The notes beneath the pieces were generated by a model. The model was not told the DNA's origin, did no database searches, and was given only the letters and a program-made list of their open reading frames with translations. From Acidimicrobiia bacterium (GTDB taxonomy: Bacteria > Actinomycetota > Acidimicrobiia > Spongiisociales > Spongiisociaceae), in the NCBI GenBank assembly GCA_041576165.1, contig JBFGLM010000021.1, positions 1 through 64,000 on the forward strand: 64,000 nt of DNA, in the 5' to 3' direction. Position numbers and translations under genes: made by a program. Of the stretch, positions 1,768-55,646 are shown in pieces. How positions within the stretch are numbered: position 1 is the first letter of the stretch; each line of letters begins with the position of its first letter.

Positions 1768-4700
1768 CAACGGCCCCGGAAAGTGAGCCCCCTGGCGGCG
1801 GGTGCAAAGCCGTGGTCAAGAAGTAGCCGGCCCAGAGGATGGGACGAGATAGGTTCGTCGTCGATTCGCTCCAGGGTCATGCGTCGCTGCCGGCTCCCGA
1901 CGTCTGCCAGCGCACCTGCGGCAGGAACGAACAACTCAGGATCGTCGGTGAGCGTGATGGCGCGCTTGGCTCCTCGTTCGAGGTACACGAGCGGCCGGCC
2001 ATCGTGAAGGATGACGTATGCCCCGGCCGCCCGGCTGGCCCGTCCCCCGGCCTCCTCCGGCCACGGGATGATCGACCCGTAGGGGTTGGCCGGGTCGGCC
2101 GCCGCCAGTACCACGATCCCGCCGGACGGTTCCGCGGTCCGCAGGCGATCGATTGCGCCGGGTAGGGCAAACTGGAGGCCGCCCATGCCCTCCACGAAAT
2201 AGCCCCGCCGGATCCGTCCGATCTCTTCCATGTGCGTCAGCACCGGGTACAGCGACGTGAGTCCGCCCGGCACACCTTCTGCGAGGGCGGCCGGTCTGGT
2301 CACGACACCGTGACGTTCGAGTAGCTGGTCCGTCCAGGCCGTTGCCCAGGCGGCGTCACCAGCCGGATTGGACATCAGGTCGGCCACCCTCGACCACCGC
2401 CCGGTGGCGGACGGCGGCATCGAAGACGGAAGAACGGGTGCGCGCCGGGCGCCCGCCCCGCCGCGACGCCGGGCCCGGCCCATCTGCAGAGCCCGGAGTG
2501 GCGCCAGCGTGTCATTCGTGACCTCACCCGCCCATACCAGGTCCCAGACGGCTTCGAGCACCTCGGCGGGATCACCGCCGCCGGCCGCTGTGTAGATATC
2601 ACGGAAAAAGGAGGCGCCGCGCTCAGCGAGGTGGGCCCGGATGGCATCGTGCACCGGACCGGCCGGCAGCTCGGTCGCGGGATCGGTCCGGTGCAGCAGC
2701 TCGAGCTGGTCCCGTAGGTACAACGCGATCCGCCCGTCTCTGGGACCGATCGGTCCTCGTCCCAGCCATACGACTTCTCCCGACACCATCAGCTGGTCCA
2801 GCAGCTCTGGGGCGTAGTCGAGCCGTCCGGCCAGGACATCGCGTTCGAGTATGGAAGCCGGAATCGGCGCTCCTTGCAGCTGGCGCAGCACCTCGGTGAG
2901 CGCGACCAGGTCGCGCCGGCCCGTACGTCCGACGCCCTGCCAGACCGGTACGAAACGTGCCAGCGTCACCTGGTCGACCGCCTCGATCTCTTTGCGAAGC
3001 GCCGCCAGGCTGCGGCGCTTCAACCGTCGCAAGACCTCGTTGTCGACCCATTCCTGACCTTGGGCGCCCGGCCGGAACGCGCCGCGGGCGAGCCGACCTC
3101 GGGCCTCGAGCGCGGCCAGGGCGGTTGAGACGACGCCGACCGGCAGACTCAGATCGAAGGCGGCCTGATCGGCCGTGAACGGGCCATGACTGCGGGCATA
3201 ACGACCCACGACGTCCCCCAGCGGGTCGTCCACTGTCTCCAGGAAGACCTGAGGCACTCCGGGCGGCGGCTGCAAGCCCAGGGCGTCTCGTAGCCGGCCT
3301 GCGTCCTCGACCGCCGCCCACATCTCGCGACCAGCGACCCGCACCGGGATGATGCGTCGCGTGGACTCCAATTCCGACAGCATGGATGCGGCGTCGCCTT
3401 CCTTGAGCCGGGCGTTGATCTGATCGGTGGTCAGGGGCCCGATGGCGCGGAGAAGATCGTGCAGCCCGTCGACGCCGCGTACTTTGCGATCCTCGGCGAG
3501 TCGCTGGAGTTCCATTTCGATCGATTCGATCACGTCGACCGCCAGCAGCTCGCGGAGCTCGCCCTCACCGAGAAGCTCTCGGAGAAGCTCGCGATCCAGC
3601 GTGAGTGCGGCGGCCCGGCGCTCCGCCAGCGGCGTGTCCCCTTCGTAGAGGTAGGAGGCCACGAACTCGAACAAGAGGGACGAGGCGAAGGGACTCGCGC
3701 TGCTGGTCTCGATTTCCACAACGCGCATCTTGCGGGACCGAACGTCGGCCAGAACCTGCGTGAGCGCCGGTAGGTCGAACCGATCCTGCAGTATCTCCCG
3801 GTACACCTCCAGTACGATGGGGAATGCGCCGAAGTCCTTCGTCACCTCCATCAGGTCGGCTGCGCGCCGTCGTTGCAGCCAGAGCGGGGTGCGCCCGTCC
3901 GGCCGGCGGCGGGGGAGGAGCAGCGCTCGGGCGGCCGCTTCCCGGAAATGGGCCGCAAAGATCGCTGTGTCGACTAGCTCTTCCATCAGAAGCGGCTCGA
4001 GCTCGCCAGGCTCGATCACCAATTCTTCGGTGCCGGGGACCTCATCGGAGTCCACGAACCGGAAGGCGATGCCGTCGTCGCCCCAGATGACGTCCATCGA
4101 CCGCCCGAACCGCTCTCGGAACCGCTTGTTGAGCGCAATGGCCCAAGGCGCATGAACCCGAGCGCCGAGGGGCGACAGGACGACGACGCGCCAGTCGCCG
4201 ATCTCGTCTCGAAAACGCTGGATCACGATGACCTGGTCGGAGGGCAGCACACCCGTGGATTCGCGCTCCTCATCGATGTAGGCAACGAGGTTGCGTGCCG
4301 CTCGCTCTTCGAGGCTGTATTCCTTGGTCAGCGTGTCCACTGCCGAGCCGGCCGGCAGCGATCCGATCTCGCGGATGAACTTGCCGACGGCCCGGCCGGT
4401 TTCGAGCGGTCGTCCCGGCTGGTCGCCTCGCCAAAACGGCATCCGTCCGGCCGAGTCGCCGGGTGCGGGTACGACCTCCACCCGGTCGTGGGTGATGTCG
4501 GTGATGCGCCACGTCGAGGTCCCGAGGATGAAGACGTCACCTGGTCGGGACTCGTACACCATCTCCTCGTCGAGTTCTCCCACTCGAGCGCCGTCGGGCA
4601 GATTGACGGTATACAAACCCCGGTCTGGGATCGTGCCCGGATTGGTTACGGCCAGCCGGTGGGCCCCGGCCCGGGCGGTCAACGTGTGTTCTACCCGGTC

Positions 4701-47436: not shown

Positions 47437-47546
47437 TTCCCCGCCCCCGCCGCGGCCGTATCAATGGTGTCGGCCACCACGACGTGGTGCAACAACGGGA
47501 GAGCGGAGTCGATTGCGGCCCGCCAGGGCGATCGGAGGAGGTCGCA

Positions 47547-49046
47547 ATGAAACCATTCAGTCGGATCCGGCGCAAAGCCGGTAACAGCAACAGGCGGCGG
47601 CTAGGCATCGTATTGCCAGTGGCGCTGGCGTTTTCCGTGTTCGTCTCGGGCATCGCGCTGGCGGACAACGTTCAGAACAACGTCACCGTGGGCGGCAACG
47701 ACACGTTTGTGGCCGGTGGCTCCACCAGCATCAGCTACCGCATTGTGGCGACCAGCGGCGATGGGCAAACCGGCTGCAACGCCAGCGACGGCAGCCCTGC
47801 AGTCGTGACCATCAACACGCCCGCGGGCGTCACCGCCTCGCCGAACCCGCTCACCTTCAACGCGTGCAGCACATTCCAGCCCACGACGTTCTCTAGCTCC
47901 ACGCCCGGCAACTATTCGATCACGGTGTCGGTATCCGACCCAGGGCCCGGCACCTACAACACGAGCCCGGCTGCTTTCACACTCAAAGTGCTGGCGCCGC
48001 CCGACACCACTCCGCCGGTCATCTCGTCCAACGTGTCGGGCACGCTCGGCGACAACGGCTGGTACACCAGCGACGTGAATGTGTCGTGGTCGGTCAGCGA
48101 CCCCGAGTCGGCGATATCTTCGACGAGTGGTTGCGGTCCGGCCACCATCAGTGCCGACACGGCCGGGCAGTCGTTTACCTGCACGGCAACGAGCCTCGGC
48201 GGCACCAACACGCAGTCGGTGACGATCAAGCGCGACGCCACTGCTCCGACGATCAGCGGTTCGGCCTCGCCGGCCCCCAACGGCAGCGGCTGGAACAACA
48301 CCGACGTCTCGGTGAGCTTCACCTGCGCCGACAACCTGTCCGGCGTCGCTTCGTGCGGACCGAACCAAAGGCTCGGTGGTGAGGGCGCCGGTCAGTCCGC
48401 CTCCGGCACGGCAGTCGACCATGCCGGGAATTCGGCCTCGGACACCGTGAGCGGGATCAATATCGACAAGACCGCTCCGAGCGTGTCGGTCACCGGCGTT
48501 GCCAGCGGGGCCACCTACACCCTCGGCTCGGTGCCGGCGGCCGGATGTGACACGTCGGACAGCCTGTCCGGCGTGGAGACAGCCGCCTCGTTGTCGCAGT
48601 CCGGTGGGCCGGTCGGATCGGTCACCGCCACGTGCAGCGGTGCGCTCGACAGCGCAGGCAATGCCGGCCCTTCGGCCAGCGTCACCTATTCGGTGAACTA
48701 CAGCTGGAGCGGATTCCTGCGTCCGGTCGACAACCTGCCGACCATCAACGTGGTCAAGGCCGGCACCGCGGTTCCGGTCAAGTTCAGCCTCAGCGGCAAC
48801 CACGGACTTGACATCTTCGCCGCCGGTTGGCCGAAGTCTGTGGCAGTCCCCTGCGACGCCACGGCGCCGGCCGATGCGGTCGACGAGATTGCGACCCCCG
48901 GGAGCAGCGGCCTCTCTTACGAGGCTTCGAGTGATCAGTACACCTACGTGTGGAAGACCACCAAGACGTGGAGCGGCTGCCGCCAGCTCCAGGTGAAGTT
49001 GGCCGATGGCCAGACGTACATGGCGACCTTCCGCTTCACCAAGTAA
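47547..49046 (+). CDS. secreted Ig-like repeat protein with C-terminal PxKF domain
   Basis: Signal peptide; S/T-rich beta repeats (DTTPP, GW..TDV.V, ID.TAP); C-terminal SGFL.PVD...AG..VPVKFSL...Y.YVWKT; GGAGGAGG RBS. Confidence 0.82.
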   Translation: MKPFSRIRRKAGNSNRRRLGIVLPVALAFSVFVSGIALADNVQNNVTVGGNDTFVAGGSTSISYRIVATSGDGQTGCNASDGSPAVVTINTPAGVTASPNPLTFNACSTFQPTTFSSSTPGNYSITVSVSDPGPGTYNTSPAAFTLKVLAPPDTTPPVISSNVSGTLGDNGWYTSDVNVSWSVSDPESAISSTSGCGPATISADTAGQSFTCTATSLGGTNTQSVTIKRDATAPTISGSASPAPNGSGWNNTDVSVSFTCADNLSGVASCGPNQRLGGEGAGQSASGTAVDHAGNSASDTVSGINIDKTAPSVSVTGVASGATYTLGSVPAAGCDTSDSLSGVETAASLSQSGGPVGSVTATCSGALDSAGNAGPSASVTYSVNYSWSGFLRPVDNLPTINVVKAGTAVPVKFSLSGNHGLDIFAAGWPKSVAVPCDATAPADAVDEIATPGSSGLSYEASSDQYTYVWKTTKTWSGCRQLQVKLADGQTYMATFRFTK

Positions 49047-49128: not shown

Positions 49129-50559
49129 TCAAACCCGCGAGTCGAGGAACTCGTAGAGCGCCACGGTGTCGATGTCGGCGGTCGCGCGGATCGAGACCAA
49201 TGTCGGCTGCTCGTGCAGAGACGGCCATACCTTGCTCTGCCAGCGAGCAGCGAGCTCCTTACTCGGATGACGGCAGCACGCCGGGTCGGGGCAGTTGGAC
49301 GTAGCGTGCAGGTCGGTGTCGCGCCCACGGAGATAGCGCGACCCCTCGAAGTCGGTCCCCACCGTGACCGCATGCTGACGGAGGTCGTCGACCAGCACGT
49401 GGCTGGTCTCGAAGAACGTTCCGGCGGGGGTGTCGAGAAACTGACAGTGCAGGCCGTAGCGCTGATCGGATGCGAACACTGCGCGGCCACCCCAATGCCG
49501 GCACAAACGCTGACCGACGATCACTCCGTCCTCATCCTCGGGCAAGCCAATGCCATCGTTCGACCAGGCACGCCAGATCGTGCCCTCGCGATCGGAACGG
49601 ACGTAATGGATGCGGACCCCGAGATGGCGGGTGATCAGGTTTGAGAATCGGTGCGCCGCCATGGCGTAACCGACGTAGAAGACCTCCTTGACGTCTTCGA
49701 TGGCCAGATCGCGCCGCGCGTGGGCTTCTCGGAGCATCATGACGGCGGCTGATTCGGGGACCAGCACGGCCCGGGCGAAGTAGTTGGCATGAACCCGCTG
49801 GCGGATGAACTCCTCGTGCGACTTCGGATCCTCGTGGCCGAGGACGAAGTGACCGAGCGTGCGCAGGATCACGGTCCGCGCTTCGCGGGTGCGGAGTGCA
49901 TCCCGCTGGGGAATGTAGATCCGCCGTCGTTCCAGGTCGGTGATCGACTGCAGCGATTCCGGCACGTCGGCGTCCTGATGAATCTCGAAGCCTGCATGCT
50001 TGGCAAGGGCGGTGAGCAGAGCCTGGGGGACTGCCCCCTGTCCCGGGTAGTCGACCGCGGTGAGGAGGCCGGCTGCCACGTCTTCGATCTCCGGGAGATA
50101 GTTGTCCACGGCCTCCAGTTCCCGCCGCAGCGACACGTTGGCCCGCCGAGCCGACTGGACCGAGCCGCCGGCCTGAGCCGATGCCTGCTTGAGTCGCTCG
50201 TACAGGGCCAGGATGTGGGTGATGGCGGTGTCCGACAGTTTGGCGTATGGCTTGAGATGGGGAAGTCCAAGGGCCCGATACAGCGGCTCTTCCTGGGCTC
50301 GGAGCAGGGTGACCTCCAGCTGGGCCCGCGGATTGGGCGGCTCGGCCGTCAGCAGGTCGGCGGTGGTCGTCCCCAACGCCTCGGCGAGTCGGGTGATGAG
50401 GGAGATCCGCGGTTCCCGCTTGCCGTTCTCGACCAGTGAGAGGTACGGCGCGGGGCGGTCGACCCGGCTCCCCAGTTCTTCGAGCGTCAGTCCCGCCTGG
50501 CGGCGCCAGTGGCGTAGGCGCTGACCGAACAGCAGCGGATCGAAGCTCACCTGATCCAT
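49129..50559 (-). CDS. ramB: XRE-family regulator, RamB/PrpR (ScfR)-like
   Basis: N-terminal HTH (GQRLR..R...GLT..EL...YLSLVENGKR), ANYFA..L.P, C-terminal Cys cluster CPDPACC; divergent from isocitrate lyase. Confidence 0.78.
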   Translation of the reverse strand: MDQVSFDPLLFGQRLRHWRRQAGLTLEELGSRVDRPAPYLSLVENGKREPRISLITRLAEALGTTTADLLTAEPPNPRAQLEVTLLRAQEEPLYRALGLPHLKPYAKLSDTAITHILALYERLKQASAQAGGSVQSARRANVSLRRELEAVDNYLPEIEDVAAGLLTAVDYPGQGAVPQALLTALAKHAGFEIHQDADVPESLQSITDLERRRIYIPQRDALRTREARTVILRTLGHFVLGHEDPKSHEEFIRQRVHANYFARAVLVPESAAVMMLREAHARRDLAIEDVKEVFYVGYAMAAHRFSNLITRHLGVRIHYVRSDREGTIWRAWSNDGIGLPEDEDGVIVGQRLCRHWGGRAVFASDQRYGLHCQFLDTPAGTFFETSHVLVDDLRQHAVTVGTDFEGSRYLRGRDTDLHATSNCPDPACCRHPSKELAARWQSKVWPSLHEQPTLVSIRATADIDTVALYEFLDSRV

Positions 50560-50586
50560 AAAAAGGCCCCCGAATCGTCTCATCTC

Positions 50587-50671
50587 GAAAGATAGTCGAT
50601 TCTTTCTCCCAAATATCCTCGGATTTGGCATGTGGCCGGCAAAGAATGCCGAATAGATCGCAATCTTCGCC
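50587..50671. promoter_or_regulatory. inverted repeats in the ramB-aceA divergent promoter (candidate operators)
   Basis: GAAAGA-N8-TCTTTC (50587-50606) and GGCAAAGAATGC-N10-GCAATCTTCGCC (50638-50671, 10/12 match) in an AT-rich spacer. Confidence 0.55.
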
Positions 50672-50682
50672 GTGGAGGACAC

Positions 50683-51966
50683 ATGCGGACGGACTTCGAT
50701 AGCCAGGTACGGGCGCTCGAGCACGATTGGCAAACCAACCCCCGCTGGGCGGGAATCGAGCGACCGTATTCGGCCGAAGACGTGATTCGGCTGCGGGGAT
50801 CGGTACGGGAGCACATGACCCTCGCCGACCGGGGAGCTCGCCGGCTGTGGGAGCTGATGGAACAACGCCCGTATGTGAACGCGCTGGGCGCCCTGACCGG
50901 CGGGCAGGCGGTGCAGATGGTGAAGGCCGGCCTCGAGGCCATCTACCTGTCGGGCTGGCAGGTGGCCGGGGATGCCAACCTGGCCGGACAGGTGTACCCG
51001 GACCAATCGCTCTATCCAGCCAACAGCGCCCCAGCCCTCGTGCGGCGGATCAACAATGCGCTCCAGCGAGCCGACCAGATCCATTGGGCCGAGGGCGCCG
51101 GCGACGAGACGGACTGGTTCGCCCCGATCATGGCCGATGGAGAAGCGGGTTTCGGCGGCCCGCTCAACGTGTTCGAGCTGACCAAGGAATTCATCCGGGC
51201 CGGCGCAGCCGGAATCCATCTGGAGGATCAGCTGAGCTCGGCCAAGAAATGCGGCCACATGGGCGGCAAGGTGCTGGTCCCCACCCAGCAACACATCCAG
51301 ACGCTGGTGTCGGCCCGCCTCGCAGCCGACGTGATGGGCGTGCCCATGGTCATCGCATGTCGCACCGATGCGCTGTCGGCGACGCTCCTCACCTCCGACG
51401 TGGACGAGCGCGACCGGGAGTTTGTGAGCGGTCAGCGCACCGCCGAGGGCTTCTATCACGTGCGCAACGGCCTGGAGTCGCCGGTGGCCCGAGCACTCGC
51501 CTACGCGCCATATTCGGATCTCATCTGGTGTGAGACCTCGACACCGGATCTGGAGGAGGCCCGCCAGTTCGCCGAAGCGATTCACAAGGAGTACCCGGAA
51601 AAGCGGCTGATGTACAACTGCTCGCCGTCGTTCAACTGGAAACGTCACCTGGATGATGAAACGATTGCCCGGTTCCAGGGCGACCTAGGGGATATGGGCT
51701 ACGCATTCCAGTTCATCACCCTGGCCGGGTTCCATGCGCTCAACGAGTCGATGTTCACCTTGGCGTCGGGGTACCGGGAGTCACAGATGACGGCCTACGT
51801 CGAGCTCCAGGAGCGTGAGTTCGCGATGGAGTCGGCCGGTTACACCGCTACCAAGCATCAGCGCGAAGTCGGCGCGGGATACTTCGACGACGTGGCTACA
51901 GTCATATCAGGTGGTACGGCCTCGACCCTGGCGATGGTTGGCTCAACCGAAGAGGATCAGTTCTGA
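50683..51966 (+). CDS. aceA: isocitrate lyase
   Basis: [19 protein letters not shown]...[30 protein letters not shown]. Confidence 0.98.
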
Positions 51967-52194
51967 TTCCACCCGCCTGAGAATGCTGCTTGTGCTCCGC
52001 CCGGCGGGATTCGACAAACGAGGGGGCGTCCTGTGGTCATGAATTTCGGGTCTGAGTGTCGTTGTTGCGCGCCATCGTGCCAGTCGCGCATCCGACGGCC
52101 CGTGCCCATCGGCCCGCAGGTAGATTCCCCACCACGCTCCTAGACCAGAAAGGCGGTCTTCGTCACAATGGCAAAATCCGAACAAGGGGCAGAC

Positions 52195-53253
52195 ATGGCG
52201 CACATCGTTCATGTGGTCGGTACCGGCACGATCGGTGAACCCTTGATCGGCTTGCTGGCCGATCACAAGGAGGACTTCGGGATCGACGAGGTCACGTTCC
52301 ACAAGCGAACGCCCCTGGTGGAGGAGCGGGCCAAGGTGAACGACCTGATTCGACGTGGCGCCCATCTGTCGGTCGAGCAGGATCGCTGGAGCTCGTTCGA
52401 AGAGCTGGGCCACATACCCAAATACGAGGCGCGCGAGGCGATTGACCGGGCCACCGTTGTCATCGACTGCACACCCGCAGGTAACGAGAACAAGGAAGCC
52501 TTGTATGCGCACGCAACCGGCCCCCGCGGGTTCATGGCCCAGGGGTCCGAGTTCGGCTTCGGGAAGATGTATGCCCGCGGGATCAACGACTCCGCCTTGG
52601 ACCGCGCCGACGATCGATACCTGCACATTGTCTCCTGCAATACCCACAACATCTCGGTCCTGATCAAGACGCTGGGCATGGATCCGGATGGCACCAACCA
52701 CCTGACCGATGGGCGATTCATGTGCATCCGCCGGGCCAACGACATCAGCCAGGACGCCGGCTTCGTTCCGAGCCCCACAGTGGAACGTCACAAGCTCGAG
52801 CGGTTCGGCACCCATCACGCCCGCGACGCCCACGATTTGTTCAAGACCATGGGCTATGACCTGAACCTGTTCTCGTCGGCGGTGAAGCTGAACACCCAGT
52901 ACATGCATGCCCTGCACTTCAGTCTCACCCTCGACCGCGAGATGACGGTCGACGAAGCCGTTGAGCGCCTCATGGGCAACACCAGAGTCGCGATCACCAC
53001 CAAACGGTCGGCCAACAAGATCTTTTCGTTCGGTCGTGACCACGGCTACTACGGCCGCATCCTCAGCCAGACGGTCATTCCCACCGATACCCTGACCGTG
53101 CGCAACGGCAACGAGCTGGTGGGCTTCTGCTTCACACCCCAGGACGGCAACCCGATGCTCTCGACGCTGGCCGCCACGTTGTGGTACCTGCATCCCGACG
53201 GGTTCGAGGAGCGCATCGACGTCGTGCGTCCGTATTTGTTTCGGGAGATCTAG
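52195..53253 (+). CDS. archaeal-type (class II) GAPDH-like dehydrogenase; substrate unknown
   Basis: VVGTGTIG, VIDCTP.GNENK, AQGSE, IVSCNT (catalytic Cys), RRAND, THHARD, YMH. Confidence 0.75.
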   Translation: MAHIVHVVGTGTIGEPLIGLLADHKEDFGIDEVTFHKRTPLVEERAKVNDLIRRGAHLSVEQDRWSSFEELGHIPKYEAREAIDRATVVIDCTPAGNENKEALYAHATGPRGFMAQGSEFGFGKMYARGINDSALDRADDRYLHIVSCNTHNISVLIKTLGMDPDGTNHLTDGRFMCIRRANDISQDAGFVPSPTVERHKLERFGTHHARDAHDLFKTMGYDLNLFSSAVKLNTQYMHALHFSLTLDREMTVDEAVERLMGNTRVAITTKRSANKIFSFGRDHGYYGRILSQTVIPTDTLTVRNGNELVGFCFTPQDGNPMLSTLAATLWYLHPDGFEERIDVVRPYLFREI

Positions 53254-53346
53254 GGGCCTAATAACGCGCCTGTCCTGCCGACACGCCCGCGCAAATCTCG
53301 GTGGCGGTGCCAGTAGGCGAGGAGGCCTACGGCGTAGAATCCTGAG

Positions 53347-53622
53347 GTGGACGGGCAGCAGCAGCGCAAGGCACTCACTGCGGCGGAGCGGGCGATCGAC
53401 CGGCTGGTCGACGCTGATGGGCAGGGAGCACGGAGGGCCGCCGCCACCGCGGCGTCGCTCGATCAAATCGGCGCCTTCGCCCGGCTGGAGCACGCGGTGG
53501 GCGCAGCCGCGCAGGATCTCGAGCGGGGCGGCACGGTTTCTGCAGCATCGCGCAACCTTCTGCTGGAAGCGGTCGGTCCGGGGCCGTTGCAGGCCGCGGT
53601 GGAGCGCCTGGCGGTCGCCTGA
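53347..53622 (+). CDS. small helical hypothetical protein
   Basis: Ala-rich helical ORF; GTG 6 nt after TAGAAT. Confidence 0.6.
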   Translation: MDGQQQRKALTAAERAIDRLVDADGQGARRAAATAASLDQIGAFARLEHAVGAAAQDLERGGTVSAASRNLLLEAVGPGPLQAAVERLAVA

Positions 53623-53635
53623 ACGCCGAGTGCCG

Positions 53636-55504
53636 TCAGCTGAGGACGGACGTGCGGAACCGCCGCCCATCAAGGAACGCGGGGCGGGTTTCGACGTGGT
53701 CGATGATGGGCTCGGTGCCGGCCGACATGAAACCGGTCCCCGTACTCAGCTTCACATCCCAGCACGTTCCCGCGTCGCAGTCGATGCGGTAGACCAGATC
53801 CGACAGCCCGTTGGCGTCCACGTCTGCGGTGTGGAAACCGCCGCTACTGGCGGCGCTTGCGAGTGCGGCGTCTGATCCCCAGTAACGCGGCGCGAACACG
53901 TTTTGGGGGGTGGCGATGAGGGCCCGCCAGCATTCAGCCTCGCCGCACTCACCGCGGTACAGAATGTCGTCGCGCCCGTCGCCGTTGAGGTCACCTGTGC
54001 GGAAACCGAATGCCAGCGTGGTGCCGGCAAACCCGGTGGTGTTCCCCCATGACATGCCGCTGGCGAATCCCGCGCCGGTGGATTGCTGGACCCGCCAGCA
54101 TGGGCGCCGCTTGCCGCAGAACCCCCGGTAGACGAGATCGTCCATCCCATCGCCGGTCACGTCGGCCAATCCTATGCCCAGGGCCTCGGTCGATTCGCTG
54201 AAGTATGCGCCATCCCCGGCCGGCGTGGGAGCTGCGAAGCCCGTGCCGGTCGAGAACTGAACCAGCCAGCAGTCCCGACCGTCGCATGCGCTGCGAGCGA
54301 CGATGTCGTCGAGCCCGTCGCCGTTGACGTCGCCTGCCAGCAGCTGGCCGATATCGGCGTAGAAGGGGGGAACCCCCCACTCCTGCACCGGCCCCGGTGC
54401 GGCGCCATCGCTCGGATGGACCAGCCAGCAACGGCCGCCCCCTGCGCATCTTCCTACATAGGCGACGTCGTCCCGCCCATCGCCGTCGAACGCGCCGGTG
54501 ACGATGCCGCGCCGGATGGTCTCGGCCCCGGCCCGGGCGTCTGATGGGACCGTCGTCGGTGCGGCGAACGCCAGCGGGTCGCCGGGTTCCACCGTCCAGC
54601 ACCGTCCCTCGGCACAACTCGTCAACTCGATTGCGTCGTCCCGACCGTCGCCGTCGATATCGGCGACGGCCACCGGAACCTCGCCGCCACATCCGATGCG
54701 GGCAGCACCCACCGCAACGTTGTCGAACACGATCTGCTTGGCGTGCTGCGAGGGCTGCTTGCCGCCGAAGTACACGTTGAACCAGAACGCACTGATCCGG
54801 ATGTGTTCCTCACCCGCCCGCCGGAAAGCCAGACCCCTCTGTTCGATCGCCAACGATTCATCCACCCAGCCCCGCAGCACTCCGTCGTGCTCCCCGGGCG
54901 TGTTGAGATCGATCGCCCCTTCGATGCAATACCAGTCACCGTTGGTGAGGAGCCCGTTGGGCCCCCACGACATGCCCTGTCCGAATCGACCCGGCTGGTC
55001 CAGATGGTATGTGTAGTAGCCGAGCTGGGTGGTGCCCGGTTCCGGTCCGGGACCGAACTGCATGCGTGCCGACCAGCCCGGCCGCTCCTCGGTGGAGGGC
55101 TTGCCGCCGAGGGCGGTTCCGTTGTAGATACCTACCGGTCCGGGCAGCTTGCCGGTGCCTTCCGTACTGAAGTCACCTGCGAACCGGAGGTAGTACCGGA
55201 AATACAGCGTCTCCGGCTGCTCCCCGCGGAACGGGTACGAGAACCGGGTGCCGTAATGAGCGCCGGGCGGGATGGTGACGAGCAAGCCGTTCCCGTCGAG
55301 GCCAATCCCGGGGCCTGCTCGATTCAACGCTCCCGGATACCAGCCGGCCCAATCGGCATGCCAGCCGTCCCCGTCGAATCCCTCCTCGACCGGCGGCTGG
55401 GCCGCAAGGGCGACTTGCGAAATGAACACGACGGCCGCGGTCACCGAAGAGAGAATCATCAGCGCGCGCCGGCTGAAGTCTCTCCCTGGCGTCCGCACTG
55501 ACAT
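53636..55504 (-). CDS. secreted polysaccharide lyase (PL14-like) with FG-GAP repeats
   Basis: Signal peptide; YFRYYLRF, GKLPG, WSARMQF, YYTYH, LNTPG..DG...WVD, YFGG; six D.(D/N)GDG.DD-type repeats. Confidence 0.8.
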   Translation of the reverse strand: MSVRTPGRDFSRRALMILSSVTAAVVFISQVALAAQPPVEEGFDGDGWHADWAGWYPGALNRAGPGIGLDGNGLLVTIPPGAHYGTRFSYPFRGEQPETLYFRYYLRFAGDFSTEGTGKLPGPVGIYNGTALGGKPSTEERPGWSARMQFGPGPEPGTTQLGYYTYHLDQPGRFGQGMSWGPNGLLTNGDWYCIEGAIDLNTPGEHDGVLRGWVDESLAIEQRGLAFRRAGEEHIRISAFWFNVYFGGKQPSQHAKQIVFDNVAVGAARIGCGGEVPVAVADIDGDGRDDAIELTSCAEGRCWTVEPGDPLAFAAPTTVPSDARAGAETIRRGIVTGAFDGDGRDDVAYVGRCAGGGRCWLVHPSDGAAPGPVQEWGVPPFYADIGQLLAGDVNGDGLDDIVARSACDGRDCWLVQFSTGTGFAAPTPAGDGAYFSESTEALGIGLADVTGDGMDDLVYRGFCGKRRPCWRVQQSTGAGFASGMSWGNTTGFAGTTLAFGFRTGDLNGDGRDDILYRGECGEAECWRALIATPQNVFAPRYWGSDAALASAASSGGFHTADVDANGLSDLVYRIDCDAGTCWDVKLSTGTGFMSAGTEPIIDHVETRPAFLDGRRFRTSVLS

Positions 55505-55646
55505 ATGGCTCACAACGTCTAGATCGGCGCCGGAGTTTCCGAACTACAACCGCACGCTCATAAACGCCGGGTGCTATAGGGGTTGCTGGGGGAATGAGGC
55601 AGGAAGTGCTTCAGAACCTGGGTGTGGGCGCCGGTCGGGGGGGAGA

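Follow-up and report, generated by a model that had tools for sequence, protein, structure and literature searches.

The DNA analysed here, a stretch of 64,000 nucleotides referred to as the window, belongs to contig JBFGLM010000021.1 (C21, 65% GC content), which is part of the 5.1-Mb metagenome-assembled genome (MAG) G000 of an Acidimicrobiia bacterium with 96.5% completeness and 7.5% contamination. The locus of interest comprises a gene for a RamB-like regulator, the divergently oriented isocitrate lyase (ICL) gene aceA and, downstream of aceA and on the same strand, a gene for a protein that resembles archaeal type II glyceraldehyde-3-phosphate dehydrogenase (GAPDH) and is called gapL in the following (Table 1). 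A sequence-only reading of this DNA had described the order of these three genes, the gap in front of gapL and a set of motifs in the gapL product, all of which were found again in the window.

Table 1. Genes and intergenic regions of the RamB-like/aceA/gapL locus (positions in the window)
Feature	Position	Strand	Remarks
Gene for RamB-like regulator, 475 aa	49129-50556	-	XRE-type helix-turn-helix (HTH) and Peptidase_M78/IrrE-like domain; divergent from aceA
Divergent intergenic region, regulator/aceA	50557-50679		Place of aceB in relatives; aceB absent here
aceA, ICL, 428 aa	50680-51966	+	ATG start 50680; alternative GTG start 50632
aceA-gapL spacer, 228 bp	51967-52194		No terminator-like hairpin, no sigma-70-like promoter
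gapL, type II GAPDH-like, 352 aa	52195-53253	+	Cys148 codon 52636-52638

The aceA product passes the NF011645 equivalog model for ICL (758 bits, cut-off 562) and matches PF00463 with 350 bits, whereby the hidden Markov model alignment starts at residue 22 of the longer open reading frame (ORF) that begins with the GTG codon. For gapL, a longer ORF runs from 52168, and the ATG at 52195, which is preceded by a Shine-Dalgarno-like AAGGGG run, agrees with the N-termini of the homologues (352 aa, 100% coverage). The true start of the regulator ORF lies at 50556, and the protein begins with MDQVSFDPLLFGQRLRHW. It carries the HTH at residues 10-67 (HTH_31, 51.9 bits) and the Peptidase_M78/IrrE-like domain at residues 201-305 (30.2 bits), but reaches 46.2 bits with the NCBIfam RamB equivalog NF038139, for which the cut-off is 700 bits. 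Thus, the term "ramB-like" of the sequence-only reading is borne out for the HTH/M78 architecture and the divergent position, but not in the sense of a RamB equivalog, and the likeness appears to be a loose one that consists only of the domain architecture and the divergent position beside shunt genes. A scan of positions 50400-53700 gave no sigma-70-like promoter site (0.7 expected), which says little for this phylum, and three terminator-like sites (1.4 expected; none in the aceA-gapL spacer), which is likewise uninformative for this phylum.

The gapL protein and its family

The gapL product contains the six motifs GTGTIG (residues 9-14), DCTPAGNENK (91-100), QGSE (116-119), VSCNT (146-150), RRAND (179-183) and HHARD (207-211). 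From these, the protein had been assigned to the archaeal type II and not to the bacterial kind with an SCTTN motif, and three kinds of search agree with this. In NCBIfam, the best matches are the type II GAPDH equivalogs NF003251 and TIGR01546, both below threshold. In a PDB sequence search, archaeal GAPDHs were the only matches (1cf2 with an E-value of 1.4e-7, followed by 2yyy and 1b7g), and in the HMMER alignment with 1cf2 and 2yyy the VSCNT, RRxxD and HH motifs as well as the later His238 are in register. An AlphaFold2 model of gapL, generated with 70 family members in the alignment, has a mean predicted local distance difference test (pLDDT) score of 97.3. With this model, the top six rows of a Foldseek search are chains of the archaeal GAPDHs 1CF2, 2CZC, 2YYY, and 1B7G with template modelling (TM) scores of 0.78-0.85, and type I GAPDH and erythrose-4-phosphate dehydrogenase rank after them with TM scores of approximately 0.6-0.7. 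No Pfam match was obtained for gapL, including the domains Gp_dh_N and Gp_dh_C (PF00044/PF02800), so that the protein does not group with the type I GAPDHs characterised by SCTTN. Neither does it group with Asd, ArgC and the archaeal malonyl- or succinyl-CoA reductases as judged by aspartate-semialdehyde dehydrogenase family models, since TIGR01296 yields 17 bits (E 0.0024) against a cut-off of 324, and asd_B matches occur in just two of the 70 family members, with a best E-value of 2e-4.

The residues of the motifs are largely retained within the 70 members, where Cys148 is present in 63, His238 in 67, Arg179 in 64, Arg180 in 68, Asp183 in 66, His207 in 61, and Lys37 in 62 sequences, whereas position 208 is occupied by His in 42 and by Gln in 24 of them. 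By analogy to archaeal GAPDH structures, we take the Cys of SCNT and the His to be catalytic and the Arg-Arg and His-His pairs to be phosphate binding. We therefore have high confidence in the prediction, made from sequence and model, that gapL is a phosphorylating enzyme of the GAPDH type. As to the cofactor, Lys37 lies where strand beta-2 ends and aligns with the Lys of the 1cf2 segment "SKTRP", and no conserved acidic residue was found at the end of this strand across the 70 members. The retention of this Lys and the lack of an acidic residue give a hint of NADP(H) use.

Homologues of gapL are numerous, and together with the high pLDDT they mark it as a real gene. Among 8000 scored candidates, 6962 matched at E<=1e-3, whereby the top 120 share 74-100% identity, and clustering at 50% identity left 730 representatives at E<=1e-3 and 163 at E<=1e-30. 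Named members, of which there were few among the 20 representatives looked up, stem from Acidimicrobiia, Marinimicrobia, Myxococcota, Deltaproteobacteria, and Pseudomonadota MAGs, and Acidobacteriota-labelled clusters in Atlas also hold members of the family. The type II-like GAPDHs to which gapL belongs thus make up a bacterial family that is large and strongly conserved. The JGI label of the homologues is GAPDH (NAD(P)), whereas they mostly go as "hypothetical protein" at NCBI and are unrecognised by Pfam. The family has near-invariant residues of its own (His151, Arg281, Arg288, Asn319, and a PQDGN block), and its ten most distant members reach 34-81 bits with the type II model or do not match it at all. 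On the evidence of its sequences, the bacterial family that includes gapL is distinct from archaeal type II GAPDH, is a putative sister of it and is so far unstudied; the family tree is unrooted. A literature search, for which supplements were outside reach, gave no account of a bacterial type II-like GAPDH or of its link to ICL. A search for fusions among longer proteins had P0428 as its sole match, a 766-aa protein that is encoded on a 6.7-kb metagenome contig and in which Pfam recognises an ICL domain. Since its ORF opens in the middle of the ICL and its gapL part contains garbled stretches, it most likely represents a read-through or gene-calling artefact of the aceA-gapL arrangement on an error-rich contig and not a true fusion.

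Linkage to the glyoxylate shunt in relatives

The gene neighbourhood was compared in the 80 best species-level genome loci of relatives, in which gapL is 73-79% identical to that of the window. Ten of these loci have too little DNA upstream of gapL, which leaves 70 informative ones. An ICL gene is located upstream of gapL and on the same strand in 43 of the 70 loci, whereby both genes are directly adjacent in 24 loci, separated by an insert of 0.7-1.2 kb in 15, and by one of 2.7-3.5 kb in four. The linkage of homologues to aceA, for which the sequence-only reading had suggested to look, is thus real but not obligatory. In the 24 adjacent cases, the distance from the aceA stop to the gapL start amounts to 10-222 bp, compared to which the 228 bp of the window are the longest; six of the spacers are 10-22 bp long, and spacers of at most 22 bp imply an operon. 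Two of the inserts (L083 and L025) contain glpX, which encodes the fructose-1,6-bisphosphatase (FBPase) II (PF03320, 440 bits), and the other inserts are made up of unrelated genes (pterin dehydratase/glyoxalase-like, RidA-like, and a proline-rich ORF). A RamB-like homologue is divergent from aceB-aceA in 32 of the 80 loci.

The relatives also show what is missing in the window. In L005, for example, ramB (-) is followed by aceB (3018-4613, +) and then by aceA, and the 531-aa aceB product is a malate synthase A (PF01274, 362 bits). Of 41 loci of relatives in which the ICL match is substantial, 40 also encode malate synthase A within the operon, and the one exception ends at a contig edge. The sequence-only reading had noted that there is no malate synthase gene in the window, which was extended to the whole of C21 by a PF01274 search of the 5.1-Mb assembly. 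This search had a single match, located on contig C5, which is a malate synthase G (NF002825, 1197 bits) whose gene adjoins one that is read as IclR-like from its sequence. The best named relatives of this malate synthase G are Acidimicrobiia proteins with 76% and 73% identity, so that a native origin is probable, with the caveat that applies to any MAG. Compared to its relatives, the lineage of the window has lost the aceB gene of the operon, and the malate synthase G encoded elsewhere does its job.

On the basis of the missing malate synthase it had been suggested that gapL converts an ICL product, such as glyoxylate, succinate, succinyl-CoA or succinic semialdehyde, in a variant of the glyoxylate shunt that works without malate synthase. 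The position of gapL near aceA in the window and in the 43 informative relatives and the lack of a malate synthase gene in the window itself are in accordance with such a role. However, the genomes with aceA-linked gapL, which were expected to be devoid of aceB or glcB, carry malate synthase A in 40 of 41 ICL loci, and the assembly of the window contains with malate synthase G just the normal malate synthase that the sequence-only reading had named as evidence to the contrary. As an ordinary malate synthase is encoded in the genome, gapL does not belong to a new glyoxylate pathway.

On the far side of the regulator gene from aceA, positions 47484-49046 (+) hold a 520-aa ORF which is rich in Ser, Thr, and Gly, has a hydrophobic N-terminus and no Pfam match, and looks like a secreted repeat-rich surface protein. 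Convergent with gapL is a gene for a 625-aa protein (53636-55513, -) that combines FG-GAP repeats and a domain of the Polysaccharide lyase 14 type, whereas the same downstream slot is occupied in relatives by PHP-domain, rimO-like, and cinA genes (assigned by Pfam) or by recA (read from sequence). As the downstream genes differ from those of the relatives, the window has been rearranged on the 3' side of gapL, with aceA kept upstream.

A second lineage within the Acidimicrobiia

In a class sample of 151 Acidimicrobiia genomes, gapL was found in 62 and ICL in 64, both genes together in 57, gapL only in five, ICL only in seven, and neither of them in 82; since these genomes are kin and not independent, this table amounts to approximately two gain events. 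Both genes are limited in this sample to the order of the window and to one genus, g31. The genomes in which gapL but no ICL was found are G013, G054, G118, and G146, which are 95-98% complete, as well as G049; in the f3 genomes of this kind, gapL adjoins a gene read as sufB from its N-terminal sequence. ICL without gapL was found in five genomes of family f4 as well as in G066 and G094.

The genus g31 is a deeply separate lineage with genomes of approximately 1.0-1.1 Mb and 32-37% GC, and its gapL is approximately 50% identical to the protein of the window. In 35 of 36 g31 loci, gapL is divergently adjacent to ppdK, the gene for pyruvate phosphate dikinase (PPDK; TIGR01828, 1234 bits), and 34 of these pairs lie within 61 bp of each other according to tblastn coordinates. 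In six of the 36 loci, aceA and aceB follow directly downstream of gapL (malate synthase A, TIGR01344, 672 bits), and this order gapL-aceA-aceB is the reverse of that in the window. Pyruvate kinase and a gene of the phosphofructokinase (PFK) family are present in all five genomes tested, namely G000 and four of g31. The additional presence of pyruvate kinase leaves PPDK free for the synthesis of phosphoenolpyruvate (PEP), and PPDK is plausibly the PEP-forming enzyme of gluconeogenesis in g31. The g31 lineage thus gives separate support to a link between gapL and gluconeogenesis. On the other side of gapL, the transhydrogenase gene pntB is convergent with its 3' end in 31 of the 36 loci (e.g., L084:11569-12900, -), which may reflect NADPH supply or mere synteny.

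In the genomes of approximately 1 Mb, a type I GAPDH is kept alongside gapL (five of five), which speaks for a non-redundant function of gapL. In G000, the canonical gene gap is located on contig C88 (L093:4269-5453), and its product reaches 460 bits with TIGR01534 and contains NASCTTNCLAP. It is accompanied by a tandem paralogue (L093:5291-6418, -), which is 46% identical, stays below the cut-off of TIGR01534 (306 against 367 bits) and has Asn in place of the catalytic Cys (GSNTSN/GSNTAN compared to ASCTTN). Such a Cys-less paralogue also lies beside gap in two g31 genomes of approximately 1 Mb (L205:1409-2422 and L206:1511-2524), and judged by its sequence it is conserved and probably non-catalytic. 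Each such genome therefore has one Cys-bearing type I GAPDH plus gapL. With regard to the other genes of central carbon metabolism, G000 has three PFK-family genes and three PPDK-like genes (C39:9522-12056, C9:68908-71556, and C75:10177-12729), the products of which are 45-46% identical to the g31 PPDK; the number of PPDK copies may partly reflect the contamination of the assembly. A GTP-dependent PEP carboxykinase was not found in this 96.5% complete genome.

Proposed role of gapL and comparison with known systems

In the accessible part of a review, type II GAPDHs are treated as archaeal and anabolic and type I GAPDHs as bacterial, and archaeal GAPDHs are said to act only anabolically (PMC12525153). 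Because the neighbours of gapL include aceBA, glpX, and ppdK and the archaeal type II GAPDHs are anabolic, we favour, with somewhat better than even confidence, the prediction that gapL prefers NADP(H) and serves gluconeogenesis as the partner of the type I GAPDH. A dedicated gluconeogenic GAPDH was the fallback of the sequence-only reading, and on balance it is what the gene context supports best. In such a role, gapL would reduce 1,3-bisphosphoglycerate (1,3-BPG) to glyceraldehyde-3-phosphate (G3P), for which NADPH is the probable cofactor, in cells that obtain their carbon by way of the glyoxylate shunt (acetate, fatty acids) or as pyruvate via PPDK. Cys148 would attack the acyl phosphate to give a thioester, NAD(P)H would deliver the hydride with His238 as acid/base, and Arg179/Arg180 together with His207/His208 would hold the two phosphates. 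In the relatives, gapL is the last gene of an aceB-aceA-gapL operon, where a RamB-like regulator would control its expression jointly with that of the shunt genes, while in g31 it would be expressed together with ppdK. The pair G3P/1,3-BPG as substrate, the cofactor, the direction of flux, and the RamB-like control are what we infer in this scheme, whereas the analysis itself shows the fold, the linkage of the genes, and that the residues for catalysis and phosphate binding have been kept.

Several observations weigh against this role. The NCBIfam scores of gapL lie far below the equivalog cut-offs (76 against 185 bits for NF003251 and 47.6 against 232.9 for TIGR01546), none of the 70 scanned members comes near the type II GAPDH cut-off (best NF003251 E-value 4.9e-38), and the identity to the solved archaeal enzymes is just 18-21% in Foldseek. 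Directly after the Cys motif (SCNTH), 65 of the 70 members have His151, where the two aligned archaeal enzymes have Thr, and judging from the sequence this residue could alter the substrate pocket. The co-occurrence with ICL goes back to about two gain events, as mentioned above, and no ICL is present upstream of gapL in 27 of the 70 informative relatives. In G000, neither GlpX nor a class I FBPase nor an FBP aldolase/phosphatase was found at 96.5% completeness, and as no FBPase-type gene was found, the FBPase step of upper gluconeogenesis is unaccounted for in this genome. Moreover, the type I GAPDH of most bacteria can run in either direction, and the need for a second enzyme is an assumption.

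The gene context of gapL outside the Acidimicrobiia weighs against this role as well. Among 301 sampled genomes of Actinomycetota, gapL was found only in the order of the window (six genomes including G000) and in none of approximately 280 genomes outside the class. Loci of other lineages were represented by 80 metagenome loci retrieved with an alignment of eight distant members, 78 of which carry a gapL with 51-61% identity at a GC content of 0.28-0.73. The flanks of these 78 loci extend over at least 1.7 kb on at least one side in 56 and on both sides in 35 cases. Within them, no ICL, malate synthase A, glpX, or true ppdK gene was found near gapL in any of the 78 loci, and the metabolic linkage of gapL is confined to the two Acidimicrobiia lineages. 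Instead, the neighbours, confirmed by Pfam on one representative each, are ccmF/A/B/C (upstream) and genes for a metallo-beta-lactamase (MBL)-fold hydrolase, tilS, ftsH, DUF192, CCG/4Fe-4S, and tldD; hpt is also found near gapL as read from sequence. In 15 of the 80 loci (within L125-L204), the gene of the MBL-fold (Lactamase_B) hydrolase starts approximately 3 bp past gapL (e.g., L177:7050-7682, +), with ccm genes upstream and tilS/ftsH downstream. PPDK-like matches near gapL in L129 and L204 (25-27% identity) were read as PtsI-like because of their length (591-620 aa) and N-terminus and were discarded.

These data also bear on the conversion of an ICL product by gapL. Its appeal is increased by the co-occurrence of gapL and ICL across the class. 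However, five genomes were found with gapL and without ICL and seven with the opposite combination, and the 78 loci of other lineages have no ICL nearby, so that the function of gapL cannot depend on an ICL product. In addition, the g31 loci with aceA carry malate synthase A as well, the retained Arg-Arg and His-His sites argue for a phosphorylated substrate, and the matches to Asd are negligible. In view of the malate synthases and the separability of gapL and ICL, this suggestion is not supported; we regard it as very improbable and close to refuted.

It might also be that gapL uses the same fold for another phosphorylated aldehyde/acyl phosphate, such as erythrose-4-phosphate, whereby the linkage to aceBA and ppdK would mark an unrecognised step of C2/C3 assimilation. 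This would fit to the low equivalog scores and the lack of Pfam matches, to the near-invariant residues that are peculiar to the family, and to the housekeeping, non-glycolytic neighbours in other lineages; furthermore, a genome of approximately 1 Mb which keeps gapL besides a competent type I GAPDH fits with a non-redundant reaction. Against this stands that gapL has kept all the motifs that align to the sites of catalysis and phosphate binding in archaeal GAPDH, that the nearest structures are all G3P dehydrogenases, that glpX, ppdK, and aceBA point to a route from PEP via triose to hexose, and that no pathway came up as a candidate in which an enzyme of this sort is missing. We consider another substrate unlikely, while it deserves to be kept in mind. 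The more radical form, in which gapL is no G3P dehydrogenase but the founding member of a bacterial family that employs the type II scaffold for a different acyl-phosphate/aldehyde pair, seems decidedly doubtful to us. If it were true, there would be an unrecognised reaction in the C2/C3 assimilation of abundant uncultured marine and soil bacteria, which would explain why genomes of approximately 1 Mb keep gapL beside a competent type I GAPDH.

A further possibility concerns the direction of the reaction, as gapL could be a true GAPDH that works oxidatively or in both directions, for instance as an NADP-dependent supplier of NADPH, and is not dedicated to gluconeogenesis. The conserved Lys37 and the missing acidic residue at strand beta-2, which suggest NADP(H), would be compatible with this, the convergent pntB in g31 could hint at NADPH balance, and gapL is present in the five genomes in which no ICL was found. 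However, the conserved partners of gapL are PEP-forming and shunt enzymes and not enzymes of sugar catabolism, and the characterised type II enzymes are anabolic as far as the available text of the sources goes (PMC12525153; PMC10817205). An oxidative or bidirectional function is therefore quite unlikely in our view, and we retain the gluconeogenic partner of the type I GAPDH as the preferred role of gapL. Within the Acidimicrobiia, the gapL family is wired to genes of the glyoxylate shunt, PPDK, and FBPase. If the preferred role is true, there would be bacteria that, like haloarchaea, employ GAPDHs of types I and II side by side and divide the glycolytic and the gluconeogenic flux between them, and gapL would have to be added to metabolic reconstructions of the widespread Acidimicrobiia of sea and soil as well as of the further phyla that bear it.

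Among known systems, the archaeal type II GAPDHs (NF003251/TIGR01546; 1CF2, 2CZC, 2YYY, and 1B7G) are most similar to gapL. They have a length of approximately 340-350 aa and share with it the two-domain fold, the positions of GxGxxG, DCTP, SCNT, RRxxD, HH, and the catalytic His, as well as the anabolic role, which is predicted in the case of gapL. Unlike them, gapL is bacterial, distant in sequence and below the equivalog cut-offs, has His and not Thr after SCNT, and belongs to a family of its own. The closest parallel for the metabolic arrangement is offered by haloarchaea such as Haloferax volcanii and Haloarcula hispanica, where type I and type II GAPDH also occur in one genome. In the accessible text on Haloferax, the type II GAPDH (gapII) is gluconeogenic and the type I GAPDH (gapI) glycolytic, and haloarchaeal gapII is described as co-regulated with gluconeogenic genes, e.g., fbp and ppsA (PMC10817205). 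This co-regulation is, as we suggest, mirrored here by the aceBA, glpX, and ppdK neighbours, whereas the host of gapL is a bacterium, the type II-like gene is a likely import, and the place of TrmB would be taken by an XRE protein of the RamB-like kind. In bacteria, a second NADP(H)-preferring GAPDH that operates on non-sugar carbon beside the glycolytic GapA is represented by GapB of B. subtilis and C. glutamicum; unlike these paralogues, which are of type I with SCTTN, gapL belongs to the type II lineage. Finally, the ramB-icl/aceA-aceB loci of Corynebacterium and Mycobacterium likewise have an XRE-family regulator divergent from the glyoxylate shunt genes, but in the locus described here the regulator is not a RamB equivalog and the operon is extended by a gene for a type II-like GAPDH.

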